From Schmidtea polychroa (Eukaryota), in NCBI GenBank assembly GCA_044892525.1, contig CM097887.1, forward strand, positions 28,148,001 to 28,212,000: a stretch of 64,000 nucleotides of DNA, in the 5' to 3' direction. The position numbers were made by a program, and so were the translations under genes. Of this stretch, positions 1 through 17,297 are shown piece after piece; the stretch's first letter is position 1, and each line of letters starts with the position of its first letter. The notes beneath the pieces are model-generated. The model had not been told where the DNA came from. It was given only the letters and a program-made list of their open reading frames with translations, and did no database searches.

Positions 1-86
1 CGTATGTTGGATTTCCTTTGGTTCCAATACGGAAATTTTGTTCATCCACAGAACAAATGCAGCTATTCTAGCGGCATCTATTATAT

Positions 87-350
87 TCATAAAAAAGCTA
101 ATGGCCAACGATTACTTTTTCTCTTTGTTGGGGTTAGAGCAAAAACAAAAACAATCAAAAGTGGGTGATATTGATTATAGTAATGCTTGTATAAATCGTA
201 AATTTTAGTATCTTCTTTTATATAACCAATTGGTGATTCACTTAATCGATTAAAATATTCTGGTATTCTATATTGAGGGTAAGATTCGTTTGGTTTTTCT
301 AAATATTTCTTAATATTTTCTAGAAACGCAGTTTTAATATTATCAGACAT
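87..350 (-). CDS. Small viral ORF of unknown function, genotype A (ATG at 350)
   Basis: Clear homolog of 12551-12805 (MSDxI...YLxxPNxSYPxYRIPxYFN...DLYKHYYNQYHPLLI), in the same position next to the PLA2 ORF. Confidence 0.65.
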   Translation of the reverse strand: MSDNIKTAFLENIKKYLEKPNESYPQYRIPEYFNRLSESPIGYIKEDTKIYDLYKHYYNQYHPLLIVFVFALTPTKRKSNRWPLAFL

Positions 351-364
351 TCTAAAATTAATAA

Positions 365-507
365 ATGAGTTACCGTATATATAAGGGTGAAATGCACATG
401 CCTGGCTATAATTTCTGTGGGCCAAGTACCAATACCGATATCCGATTGGACAAAACCAGTGAACGAAATCCAGTAGAAGGCAGTGAACCAGTAGATGAAA
501 TAGATTT
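365..507 (+). pseudogene. Truncated PLA2-like (VP1u-type) N-terminus, genotype A
   Basis: MSYRIYKGEMHMPGYNFCGPSTNTDIRLD...EPVDEID resembles the PGYNY/FxGPG calcium loop of parvoviral PLA2. It breaks before the catalytic HD and joins helicase sequence. Confidence 0.75.
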
Positions 508-523
508 CCTAAGAAAAATATAA

Positions 524-1051
524 GAAAAATATATTCGTCGTCTCATTGGGATTTATACAATCTTATCGTCTCAAGCCGGAAAAACCAAAACGATTATATT
601 AGAAGGAGTAAGTAATGGTGGGAAAACATTATTCACAGCTATATGTCGTGGGACTTTAAAACATGGATTTTTTACAGGAGCACAAACACAAAGTGAATTT
701 TGTTTTGATGATTGTGTTGGTAAAGAAATGATTATTGGAGAAGAAATTTATTGCGATTTTAAAAATGTTAATTTATTAAAGTTATTATGTGAAGGTAATA
801 TTTTTTTTAAAGTTTCTAGAAAAGGAGAATCAAAGATTGAATTATCAAATTGCCCATGTATTATTTCTAATAACCATCCTATTTGGAAATATGCATCAGA
901 ACATGAAGAAGCATTAAAAAATCGTTCTCTTTATATTATTGTTGAAAAACCTTATGAATTTAACACTCACATCAATGTATTTGAGGATATTAATGTTTTA
1001 AACGATGTAAAATATGACATTTTTGATAAAATAAAACAATTTTTTAACTGA
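524..1051 (+). pseudogene. 5'-truncated stand-alone SF3 helicase, genotype A
   Basis: Open frame from 524: Walker A GVSNGGKT, Walker B IIIGEE, motif C IISNN. Homolog of 10244-10912 lacking about 45 N-terminal residues. Confidence 0.85.
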
Positions 1052-1073
1052 TTAAAATATTTATTAACTAAAA

Positions 1074-12820: not shown

Positions 12821-12970
12821 ATGACTGTGAGAATATATACTGGAGAAATGCACATGCCTGGCTACAATTTCTGTGGTCCTGGCACAAACACCGATATTCG
12901 ATTGGACAAAACAGAACAACGTAATCCTGTGCCAGGCAGTGAGCCAGTAGATGAGATAGATTTATTATGT
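12821..12970 (+). pseudogene. Truncated PLA2-like (VP1u-type) N-terminus, genotype C
   Basis: MHMPGYNFCGPGTNTDIRLD...EPVDEIDLLC, then fused via tatgt to ITR variant D. Catalytic HD missing. Confidence 0.8.
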
Positions 12971-13025
12971 GGGGGCCCTGTAGCTTATAGCACCCCATGG
13001 CGTGCTTATTAATAAACCATGGTTT

Positions 13026-14871
13026 ATGGCATTATTAAAAAGGTTCAAAAGAGTGTTTGCAAAGCACGAGTATGATTTGGGACTTACCCAGGTGATCGAA
13101 CATGAGATACCACTACTCGATGAAACTCCTATTAAATTACGACCGTATAAAATCCCTTATATACATCAATAGGAAAGTGATAGACAGATAAAAGCGATGA
13201 AAGAGTTTGACATAATAAGAGACAGTTCATCACCATTCTCATCCTCAATAGTAGTAGTCAAAAAGAAAGACGGTGATTTACGGTTTTGTGTGGATTATCG
13301 AAAATTGAATCAGGCTACAAGAAAAGACAGCTATCCTATTCCAGTTCCACAGGAAATGTTTGATCAAATGGGAGAAGTACAATTCTTCACAGTAATCGAT
13401 TTGAATAAGGGATATAATCAATTTAAAGTAAAAGAAGAAGATAGAAGGAAAACGGCATTTTCAGACGGTAAAGGTTTGTACGAATTCAATGTGTTACCAT
13501 TTGGCTTAACGGGAGCGCCAGCCACGTTCCAGCGAGGTATGAATTTTGTGTTAAGAGACATCCCACACGCACTAGTTTATATTGATGATATAATAATATT
13601 TTCGAATAACTTTCAGGAACATTTGGAAGATGTAGAAACAGTATTCCAAAGATTGTTAAAGGCGAATTTAAAAATAAAACCCTCAAAATGTGAGTGGGGG
13701 AAATCAGAAGTAGTCTATGTTGGTCATATTATATCCCGAAGTGGGTTACAGCCAAACCCCGAAAATGTAGAAAAAATTAAAAATTATCCAATTCCAAAAA
13801 ATGTAGATCATGTTAGACAATTTCTCGGATTAGCCAGTTATTATAGAAAATTCATTAAAAATTTTGCGCATGTAGCACAACCCCTGAACATATTATTAAA
13901 AAAGCAGGCTCAATTTAAATGGACAAAAACACAACAGGAAGCGTTCGAATCGCTGAAAGAAAGCTTGATTAAAAAACCAATATTAAGATGTCCAAATTTT
14001 AAAATACCATTTATCCTAATGACAGATGCGAGCAATTTTGCGTTGGGCGCAGTGCTAGGACAACAGGTTGAAGGAGAAAGAGATCACGTCATCGCATATG
14101 CGAGTAGAACTTTGAAACCGCATGAAAAGAATTATTCTACGATTGAAAAAGAAACGTTGGCATTAGTTTATGGAATAACTACATTTCGACAGTATTTAGT
14201 TGGGAGAAGATTTGTTGTCTTTACGGACCATAACCCTTTACAATGGCTCATGAAGCATAGAGATTCAACAAGTAAGTTGATTAGATGGTCAATCGCACTA
14301 CAGGAATATGATTTTGAAATTAAATACCGTACGGGTAAATCAAATGCAAATGCAGACACACTGTCGAGAATCCCCGAAGAAAATAATAATAATAATGAAA
14401 AAACGAACTATAATGATACAATTTTTATGGTAATTAAATCAGCAAATAATATAAAGGAATTACAATATAATCAAGAAAATGATGAGGAACTAAATCAATT
14501 ACGAAAAAATGCGGTAACAATTAAAAAGGAGAGTGATTGGAAACATATTGTTGAGGAAAAACAAATATATTGTCCACGAGGGTTTATTAAAATGTGTAAA
14601 AAATGAAAATTTACTAATTATAGTTCCAGCAAAACATCGAGAAGCATTATTGTTGATTTACCACGATGGAGCACTAGGAGGGCATTTATCAGCTCGAAAA
14701 ACATTATCAAGATTGGAATTGAAGTATTATTGGGAGACAATGGAACAAGATGTCAAACAATGGTGCCATACTTGTAAAGTATGTTTGACAAGACGAAATA
14801 CAGGAAGGAAAATAAAAGTTCCACTAAGACCTATGCCGGTGCCAGCAGCGCCAATGAAAATGACAACCATG
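13026..14871 (+). pseudogene. pol: Ty3/Gypsy pol fragment, copy 2
   Basis: 469-aa RT-RNase H ORF 13197-14606 (LPFGL, YIDDII, TDAS). Integrase zinc finger in a shifted frame. Confidence 0.95.
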
Positions 14872-15108
14872 GTTTATTAATAAGCACGCCATGGCGTGCT
14901 TTAGAACTATAGGGCCCCCCATTCCCCCCTTTCCCAAGTCTTTAAGAAGCACACCGCAGACACAAGACTTCGTGGGATCGATTTAAAAATATATATAGTA
15001 AAGTACAGTAATATGCCTTTACAAGGCTGTCACAGTAAAATGCCTTTACTTTACTATATATATTTTAAATAAAAGTACAAAACATAATTTATGACTCATT
15101 AATCAATA

Positions 15109-15777
15109 ATGAATAAACTTCTGTTATATAATGAATTATCGACTTTTATGGAAAGTTTTATTATTAATAATAATTTCTATTTTAACAGCGATCACAATCG
15201 ACAAATTGATAGAATTATTTCTAATTATCGTAAAGTTATTCCTAAAGAAAACGAAAAATATATTCGTCGTCTTATTGGGATATATACAATATTATCTTCT
15301 CAAGCCGGAAAGAGAAAGACAATTATTCTAGAAGGCTCAAGTAATGGAGGAAAAACATTATTTACAGCTATATGCCGTGGAAAATTAAATCATGTATTCT
15401 TTACAGGAGCTCAAACTCAAAGTGAATTTTGTTTTGATGATTGTGTTGGAAAAGAAATTATAATTGGTGAGGAAATTTATTGTGATTTCAAAAACGTAAA
15501 TTTGTTGAAACTACTATGTGAAGGAAATATTTTTTTAAAAGTTTCTCGCAAGGGTGATTGAAAAGTAGCATTAACAAATTGTCCTTGTATTATCTCTAAT
15601 AATCATCCAATATGGAAATACGCTTCAGAACATGAACAAGCTTTAAAAAATAGATCATTGTATATTGTAGTTGAAAAACCGTATGAATTTAATGTTCATC
15701 TCGATGTTTTTTCAGATAATAATGTATTAAATGATGTTAAATTTGATATATTTGATAAAATAAAAAACTTCTTTTAA
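15109..15777 (+). pseudogene. Stand-alone SF3 helicase, genotype B, copy 2
   Basis: Duplicate of 6943-7611, same TGA. Confidence 0.9.
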
Positions 15778-15837
15778 AACATTTATTACATTTAAATAAC
15801 TAAAAACTATTATTACAAACACCCATATATAAGCGAA

Positions 15838-17297
15838 CTATTTGATTACAGTTTCTACATTCGACACTGACGAACCGGCATTTTGATTTAACTGGTTGTT
15901 CGCAGTCAGATAAGGATGCTTCATTGTCTGAAAAATATTTATTAATAAATAAATTAATAATATTACATTTTCAGATTTATATTCCTTATATATTTTGCCT
16001 CTAAAATTATGAATTTTAATTCTTCTTTTTATTGCTTCCATAATATTAGGAGTTATGTTATCAGGATAGAATAATTCAATGTCATTAATACAGAATATTC
16101 TTGGCAAACCTTTTGGTAATACAGCAACCGAGTATTTAATATTAATTACATTTTCGTATGCACAATCAATTAAAGCTAAAAACTCTTCCACTTTATATTT
16201 ATTGAAATATAAGTCATCAAACACAACACCATCGCAATGACTAATATCATTAGATATTCTATTCAACATTTGTACATGCTTACAATGTACTGTATTGTTG
16301 AAATGAGAGAGAGCGAAATTTGTTTTGCAAATTCCCGATTAACCAACAAAGATATGGCTTTTTCAATCATATAAATATATTTTATCCATTAAAAAATTAT
16401 CAGCAAAATTAGGCTGAGTAGCAAGACCAAATTTATTAACAAATGTTTCAATTATAGTATTTCTTTTTGTTGTGTAGTGGAAAGCTTCATGATTCATTAG
16501 TATATCTAATCCTTCTTGCATAGTAGATGCGTTTAGAGCATTTTTAAAATAATCCACATTAGTCGAAGGCTTAAATTTACTTGGAGTTCCGATTCTTATA
16601 CTGATTCCTCCTGGGATTCTAGTATCCGATTTAGTGCAGTATGCGATTGAGGACGCTCTCTCAATCCCGGGCACTCCGCGAACAAATGGAATAAAGGCAT
16701 AAACAGACATGTTGTTGAAAATCTATATTATTAAAATTATTCCATTTGATCGTAATTGAATAATTATAATAATACCTCCCAATACATTTGCATATGACGG
16801 AATCCACCATCACCTTGTTCCTCTTGGCCGACAACGAATCTGGTGAAGGATTTATTATTCCACAGGCTTTTAAGTTCATCTTCCATAGCTTTATATTTTG
16901 AAACAGATATTCAGAATTTGAATGAGTTATATCTTCTTGATCGTTCTGTACCATTAGTTTGAGCTTGTAAATTTGATTCCAACTCAGGAGCATTTCGGAT
17001 AGGCGATATATGATTACGCTCAGCATCATGGCGTCCCCGTTTCGAATTGGAATTGGCATCGTGTTCAGCATGTCTGTGCTTTGCATGTAAACTATTATTC
17101 TTGACAGAAGTTCGCAAATCGGGCACAGGTGATGCAGACAATACAGAAGAAACACTGTCGTACTCGATTTCATCGCCACGATTGATTTTCGGCATACTGG
17201 GAGATCTTTGTTTACGAGAAGATCTATGTCGCCTAGAAGTGTGGCTACCTCGTTGTCGTTTATCATTTGACTCATCATTTTTTTTGACATATGCCAT
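15838..17297 (-). pseudogene. Spliced Rep, genotype B, copy 2 (full length from MAYVKK, nonsense codons)
   Basis: Ser/Arg-rich N-terminus 17297-16911, TGA, then the same motifs, introns and stops as copy 1. Confidence 0.85.

Follow-up and report, generated by a model that had tools for sequence, protein, structure and literature searches.

We analysed positions 1-17297 of a 64,000-nt stretch of Schmidtea polychroa DNA (hereafter the window), in which an earlier note had seen several viral genotypes packed into one locus. We put the probability at about 0.6 that broken, endogenous copies of a linear, hairpin-ended DNA virus, resembling the planarian elements PEVE and PIVE, are clustered in the chromosome here, and that the cluster was built in several rounds. 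Viral DNA makes up about 13.5 kb of the locus and the remainder consists of two copies of a Gypsy pol fragment; the GC content of the window is about 30%. The viral pieces are assigned below to strains A to D. The gene order of the viral unit, taken from the longest unbroken stretch (8870-12965), is an inverted terminal repeat (ITR), a helicase (+), a spliced Rep (-) with an overprinted open reading frame (ORF), a small ORF (-) and a VP1-unique start (+); in three places a capsid (+) stands before an ITR. The unit is about 5 kb long including the ITRs. No complete viral copy was found within the window, and the segment between the VP1-unique start and the capsid is absent in every copy. The features that bear on how the locus was built are these:

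126-150, + strand: left limit of the recognisable viral sequence; these 25 nt recur exactly at 27054-27078
4863-6698, + strand: Gypsy pol fragment with reverse transcriptase, RNase H and integrase zinc finger
6699-8869, + strand: left part of strain C, with ITR variant 4, helicase (+) and Rep (-), intron kept
12966-17035, + strand: duplicate of 4801-8869 (4070 bp), comprising the hairpin stem of ITR variant 3, the Gypsy fragment and strain C
17036-17297, - strand: rest of strain C Rep exon 1, found only in the second copy, meeting Gypsy at the Rep start codon
17298-18234, + strand: Gypsy integrase core resumes (Pfam rve, E 4.8e-5, profile 34-102), no stop in frame

The relative age of strains C and D was read from the duplication. 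Its ends are exactly the two junctions of strain D, which stands between both copies. The copies differ at three sites, all in the Gypsy part (two substitutions and one 1-nt indel in a G run). Strain C carries in-frame stops in the helicase (7393) and in Rep (8173, 8197 and 8745), and all four lie within the duplicated block, so they are common to both copies. Because this block already holds the stops and both C-Gypsy junctions, C appears to be older than D; it was joined to Gypsy before D came, and probably long before. A nearly identical duplication ending at the junctions of D thus indicates that C was resident, and probably decayed, when D arrived, which points to serial accretion and not to one concatemer. 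The stop counts (4 in 638 codons of C vs 0 in 1094 of D, p = 0.018) and the decay estimates (about 4% for C from its stops, range 1.1-10%, vs 0.07% between the duplicate copies, range 0.015-0.2%) support this order. The earlier note had offered one recombinant concatemer from a mixed infection, and this proposal is disfavoured, C having been joined to Gypsy, with its stops, before D arrived. In its full form it would need a single integration of a concatemer from co-infection by at least four strains, some of them defective, followed by one local duplication. The co-orientation of all blocks and the lack of stops in A and B would suit such an event, and rearranged concatemers of recombinant adeno-associated virus (rAAV) arise before integration, according to the available part of PMC13182792. 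Nevertheless we consider it unlikely: C is broken by D and its onward sequence is preserved in the second copy, and both the C-Gypsy junctions inside the duplicated block and the contrast in stops between C and D stand against it.

The orientation of the pieces was determined by self-comparison (1-17400) and tblastn. All 10 of the non-palindromic, non-ITR homologies were on the same strand (+/+), and the other 3 of the 13 rows were one 50-nt AT-rich self-palindrome. By tblastn, 4/4 helicase copies and 3 capsid pieces lie on the + strand and every Rep piece on the - strand, which confirms the arrangement first reported; the duplication at 12966-17035 means that one gene set is counted twice. 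By simple arithmetic, co-orientation would occur by chance with a probability of 1/64 counting 7 blocks, or 1/8 counting 4 strains. The shared orientation is real, but as evidence it is weaker than it looks, because the genes within one genome are not independent. The Gypsy pol is likewise on the + strand, as had been noted, although this has no clear meaning because the virus is ambisense, and it was not used as evidence.

At least three genotypes had been proposed, and the comparison of the pieces bears this out. The helicase/Rep region falls into three types at 73-77% nucleotide identity (A, 508-1879; C, 6699-8869; D, 9985-12965), and the capsid into three types at 70-82% (A', 1880-3302; B, 3655-4289; D, 8870-9760). 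The five ITR variants of the earlier note were recovered and are 77-90% alike. In strain D, one type each of helicase/Rep, capsid and ITR is linked. From these comparisons the number of strains is likely four or more (A to D), because ITRs 3 and 4 (4640-4862 and 6699-6935) are sisters, identical at 202/226 positions, and the ITR of B is of another type. The three A blocks were assumed to be one strain. Strain A lacks stops but has several indels, and the short piece of strain B is open. The ratio of nonsynonymous to synonymous divergence (dN/dS) was 0.03-0.24, with dS of 0.7-2 or saturated, in helicase, Rep exon 2, capsid and VP1-unique pairs. Because low dN/dS accompanies high dS in these non-overlapping genes, the differences between strains arose in replicating viruses under purifying selection, not by decay after duplication.

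The virus-virus junctions at about 507, 1880, 8870 and 12966 keep the orientation, and further joins lie at 3655, 4607 and about 150, the last absent from the earlier note. At 8870 the Rep of strain C meets the capsid of strain D, so that different genotypes are joined, as the earlier note had stated. It had also described these junctions as colinear deletions of a head-to-tail array. The junctions are real and their orientation is kept; their description as colinear deletions is no separate evidence of one array, because such wording fits every join between repeated units on one strand. Virus joins Gypsy at 4862, 6699 and 17297. Where measurable, the junction overlaps are about 8 nt or less. 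The terminal hairpin holds 5 of the 15 viral breakpoint sides, a count that excludes the junction at 150 (p = 0.0014). A CATG motif occurs within 12 nt of 4/9 junctions against a background of 9%, and two of these motifs are built into the hairpin. The VP1-unique copies of two strains break a few nt apart at a homologous position (507; 12963-12966); chance among many breakpoints and a fragile site are both possible.

Strain D starts inside the capsid, crosses an ITR junction that is perfectly head-to-tail and breaks off in the VP1-unique region, as would be left by a circle or dimer opened at an internal point. The following course would account for the locus. Viral DNA, as free ends, circles or head-to-tail dimers, would have been captured through host repair or template switching. 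Strain C would have come in first and decayed together with Gypsy. Much later, synthesis running through C would have switched at 8869 to a strain D genome in circular or dimeric form, proceeded across its ITR junction and returned 4 kb upstream into the stem of the resident ITR (4801). This return would be the source of the duplication, as in the model for adeno-associated virus (AAV) with partial target duplication, and polarity would be kept because copying stays on the same strand. Head-to-tail concatemers and the template-switch model with partial target duplication are described for AAV in the text available of PMC5714925, and the ITR loops are preferred breakpoints for rAAV in that of PMC13182792.

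Several points weigh against serial accretion or limit its detail. The excess of amino-acid change on C was not significant (43 vs 49 silent; D, 25 vs 36; p = 0.51). The upper bound of the decay of D itself (1.7%) overlaps the lower bound of C (1.1%), and the age gap therefore rests on the duplication clock. The stops of C could predate integration, having arisen in defective episomes. The enrichment of hairpins at breakpoints is also predicted by plain end-joining of linear genomes. The dN/dS was 1.0 in Rep exon 1 and 0.49 in the overprinted ORF, values that are expected for overlapping frames but lend no support.

Because the Rep intron, the hairpins and genes in both senses are kept, the sequence argues for integration at the DNA level and not from spliced mRNA. 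This bears on the retrotransposon-linked viral archive that the earlier note had likened to mosquito loci. Integration of several strains in Gypsy is supported, as is that part of the comparison, whereas the mosquito-type reverse-transcriptase route does not fit the retained intron, untranscribed hairpins and both-sense genes. Capture of viral RNA by Gypsy reverse transcriptase, building an archive as in Aedes PIWI-interacting RNA (piRNA) clusters, is very improbable. Viral pieces do lie inside the Gypsy pol gene, and in the accessible portion of PMC9962485 Aedes endogenous viral elements (EVEs) are enriched near Ty3/gypsy in antisense clusters. Yet C and D both retain the inferred intron, the hairpin ends and the genes of either sense stand in genomic order, and Gypsy is here a damaged target. 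In addition, transposase and retroelement ORFs occur on both strands (+, 13173, 27967 and 40090; -, 23372, 51957 and 56533).

We also considered whether the pieces, D included, were copied from endogenous loci elsewhere, members of a dispersed PIVE-like family, by ectopic template switching with no fresh infection. Such sequences are integrated and numerous in Schmidtea mediterranea, as given in the available text of PMC3198968, and the 25-nt piece at the left junction is identical to DNA 27 kb away, which fits templated repair. We regard this origin as rather unlikely, since the 1094 codons of D are free of stops and its head-to-tail ITR junction is perfect, as in a recently replicating genome, and the other 46.7 kb of the window yielded no further viral sequence. 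The distant twin of the 25-nt piece (27054-27078) lies just outside a pogo-like transposon; a templated insertion or a shared repeat could explain it. The frame at 1-165 had no Pfam match.

An assembly artefact, in which the scaffold took in episomes or a chimeric 8.2-kb circle (4801-12965), is quite improbable. PEVE is extrachromosomal according to the part of PMC3198968 at hand, a chromosome and a circle sharing a segment R would be drawn as a path X-R-D-R-Y, and one of the three differences between the copies is a 1-nt indel in a G run. The other two are substitutions, though, which separate the two copies. Moreover, there is no N in 1-21053, different viral blocks match exactly on the same strand over no more than 51 nt, the junction overlaps are too short to mis-join, and the Gypsy integrase resumes past the insert. 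Mis-joining is thus unlikely, the 4-kb duplication being the part least secure against it.

Serial accretion could also have had a directing cause. An old integrated copy may have been a self-made landing pad, with the Rep of later strains binding and nicking its ITRs and new copies arriving at the same locus in the same polarity. The return point of the youngest event (4801), which lies in the stem of the resident ITR, fits this idea as one case, and we consider the idea rather unlikely. If it were true, the locus would be an inherited record, ordered in time, of a hybrid virus lineage in stem-cell-rich flatworms and could feed piRNAs. In that lineage a CRESS-type Rep would be combined with ends, a capsid and a packaging helicase of parvovirus type.

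The nonstructural genes are the following:

150-350, - strand: small ORF of strain A, truncated, 62% amino-acid identity to the strain D copy
508-1051, + strand: SF3 helicase of strain A, 5' part missing, 88% amino-acid identity to C and D
1236-1879, - strand: second exon (helicase part) of strain A Rep, truncated, 78% amino-acid identity to D
10244-10912, + strand: SF3 helicase of strain D, stand-alone, 222 aa, intact (Parvo_NS1, E 1.8e-14)
11088-12492, - strand: HUH Rep of strain D in two exons, with an inferred 58-nt GT-AG intron at 11874-11931
11922-12434, - strand: ORF overprinted on strain D Rep exon 1, open in C and D (46% amino-acid identity)
12551-12805, - strand: small ORF of strain D, no Pfam match

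The helicase ORF is 222 aa in both C and D and starts about 30 nt past the ITR. A full scan gave 325 related proteins, the best three of which match end to end (222-244 aa), and the closest relatives match PPV_E1_C and Parvo_NS1; a word-indexed search returned 0/144 candidates. The nearest solved chains to the strain D helicase are AAV Rep40. By likeness to the small Reps of AAV, the stand-alone helicase is most likely a packaging motor. The HUH motifs are on the opposite-strand Rep, without an HUH-SF3 NS1 fusion in one protein, and the hairpins are presumably nicked by this CRESS-type Rep. Rep carries a C-terminal SF3 helicase, as judged from motifs, and its relatives match Viral_Rep and Gemini_AL1 weakly. 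The strain D Rep is 30% identical to the planarian PEVE Rep (72/244 aa, E 1e-38), which was the best named match of 4 for Rep (E 5e-27), and the spacing of HUH motifs II-III is 39 residues once the intron is removed, equal to that in PEVE Rep. The intron, predicted from sequence, is kept in C and D, and the AG acceptor is present in C. Comparison of Rep with plasmids gave no match. A nonanucleotide origin was sought with a single pattern, NANTATTAC: none of its 35 matches in the window lies in the ITRs or between Rep and capsid, and the only match common to two strains lies inside the helicase gene.

The strain C copy of the overprinted ORF is at 16769-17278. The ORF had no known family and no Atlas match of 0.9 or above; in its position it resembles densovirus NS2. 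The start codons of the small ORF (-) and the VP1-unique ORF (+) diverge and are 14-15 nt apart in both strains (348-367 and 12803-12823), so the promoters must lie inside the opposite gene. There were 0 Rfam matches, and a bacterial promoter scan gave nothing informative.

The capsid pieces are as follows:

365-508, + strand: VP1-unique start of strain A with PLA2-like motif, truncated (PF08398, E 0.002), 85% amino-acid identity to D
1880-3302, + strand: probable capsid of strain A', with a Gly-rich start and a frame break near 1980
3655-4289, + strand: 3' half of the strain B capsid, 82% nucleotide and 90% amino-acid identity to A', dN/dS 0.03
8870-9760, + strand: 3' two-thirds of the strain D capsid, open
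12821-12965, + strand: VP1-unique start of strain D with PLA2-like motif, truncated (PF08398, E 4.6e-4)

PF08398 scored 20.8 and 18.8 bits on the truncated VP1-unique pieces, under the curated cut-off of 23.9, and these pieces had no PDB match. The A' capsid resembled parvovirus-type capsid clusters in Atlas features (0.96), a weak match because its recognition of 1859 is below the threshold of 2300; 10/10 of the best Atlas matches fell within one family or clan. A homologue search gave 0/737 candidates, no Pfam match was found, and PDB sequence and profile searches gave nothing useful. Structure predictions had predicted local distance difference test (pLDDT) values of 31 and 29 and gave no support for a fold. 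The capsid assignment is thus weak but consistent, and the VP1-unique start and the capsid would form one gene. At one site, capsid A' is four codons shorter than B and D.

Five ITR variants were delimited:

3343-3654, + strand: ITR variant 1, in which 54 nt are duplicated in tandem and a full T-hairpin spans 3556-3654 (z -12.8)
4325-4607, + strand: ITR variant 2, with a 135-nt T-hairpin at 4473-4607 (z -17.4)
4607-4862, + strand: ITR variant 3, right-end type, with the Gypsy join at the hairpin arm edge
from 6699, + strand: ITR variant 4, strain C, with an 8-nt overlap with Gypsy inside the hairpin arm
9788-10212, no strand assigned: ITR variant 5, strain D, a head-to-tail junction with two identical 190-nt arms and a 45-nt T-hairpin core

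Three T-hairpins had z scores from -12.8 to -17.4, with 0/200 shuffles each. The small arms of ITR variant 2 are in the opposite order to those of variant 1, and small arms in both orders are a signature of rolling-hairpin replication. The arms of the strain D ITR were identical at 190/190 positions. Sister ITRs 3 and 4 were tried as an insertion clock (24/226 differences, many of them clustered in a variable spacer), and the clock was dropped because the two may belong to sister strains and not be two ends of one genome. Inside each ITR lies another palindrome, whose arms are conserved and whose spacer varies strongly (3415-3495, 4350-4428, 4660-4738, 6820-6898 and 9808-9885).

A repeat entry has represented integrated virus-like elements of planarians since 2008. 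In outline, both this type of virus and its integration are familiar from PEVE and PIVE, and the element described here may be PIVE itself. It shares with them the Rep, at the identity and motif spacing given above, and the combination of a CRESS-type Rep with a separate parvovirus/E1-like helicase gene; the latter is a likeness of gene type. In the available part of the PMC3198968 supplement, the Rep of the large PEVE segment clusters with PIVE_3p, and the protein of the small segment with PIVE_1p. In PEVE, as far as the available description goes, Rep and helicase are on the large and small segments, whereas in strains A, C and D the two genes adjoin and converge. The probable capsid with its PLA2-like start, the T-hairpins with both arm orders and the nested multi-strain accretion do not figure in those parts of the PEVE and PIVE descriptions that were compared.

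Integrated AAV (AAVS1, rAAV) has in common with this locus the T-shaped ITRs, hairpin breakpoints, head-to-tail junction, short overlaps and target duplication (PMC5714925 and PMC13182792, in the text available). It differs in that the strains here would be of several ages, the target is a retrotransposon and older viral DNA, and the nuclease and NS1-type helicase are separate genes. The Parvoviridae share the unit of about 5 kb with ITRs and the parvoviral SF3 helicase, and the probable capsid with PLA2-like and Gly-rich starts would be a further likeness, but here the 222-aa helicase stands alone and a spliced CRESS-type Rep on the other strand presumably nicks. With the Cressdnaviricota, the element shares an HUH Rep with a C-terminal SF3 helicase, and it differs in having no NANTATTAC nonanucleotide in the ITRs or between Rep and capsid. 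The Aedes EVE/long terminal repeat (LTR) piRNA clusters also hold several viral pieces with Gypsy in one locus, and the three virus-Gypsy joins here resemble their association with Ty3/gypsy; unlike these clusters, this is a DNA virus with intron and hairpins kept, and the flanking transposons have no single-strand bias.

Flatworm parvovirus-like fossils are mainly from cestodes and trematodes, or PEVE is cited in passing, in the accessible text of PMC5013282, PMC13055364 and PMC6186406. The literature searched, a scope that leaves out Repbase and the PEVE paper, gave in its available portions no account of the capsid, hairpins or integration route of such elements. Nor did it give one of nested, age-ordered strains, most subscription journals being outside its scope, and absence from print is not established. 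As read here, the locus would preserve, in order, successive natural insertions of a DNA virus with hairpin ends in a tractable animal. It makes two questions testable: whether old viral insertions attract new ones, and whether particles are made by a virus with nuclease and parvoviral helicase on separate genes.

For the Gypsy host, the domains RVT_1, RT_RNaseH and Integrase_H2C2 were detected by Pfam on the duplicate copy. The fragment at 4863-6698 has a stop at 5005-5007 and a frame shift ahead of the zinc finger. Judged from Pfam profile positions, about 30 integrase codons are missing relative to the break at 14865. The 5' half of Gypsy and an LTR pair were not seen in the window. After the integrase, the + strand at 18234-20881 holds extra ORF pieces without a significant Pfam or PDB match; one has a hydrophobic leader, and one carries what we take to be an exonuclease-like motif.

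The other 46.7 kb of the window contains DNA transposons, a second Gypsy remnant and a zinc-finger gene. A pogo/Tc5-like DDE transposon with 30-nt terminal inverted repeats lies at 27126-29490. At 56236-59050, an open 752-aa ORF (-) with no Pfam match lies between 114-nt inverted repeats (73%) and is probably an intact DNA transposon. Direct repeats of 381 bp (99.2%) at 50508-50888 and 53016-53396 surround a broken piggyBac-type transposase. The only host-gene-like coding found was at 30816-31497, as C2H2 zinc-finger exons of the zf-met/dsRNA-binding type. Finally, an AT-rich block at 20906-22813 is locally duplicated, with runs of N at matching positions in both copies.

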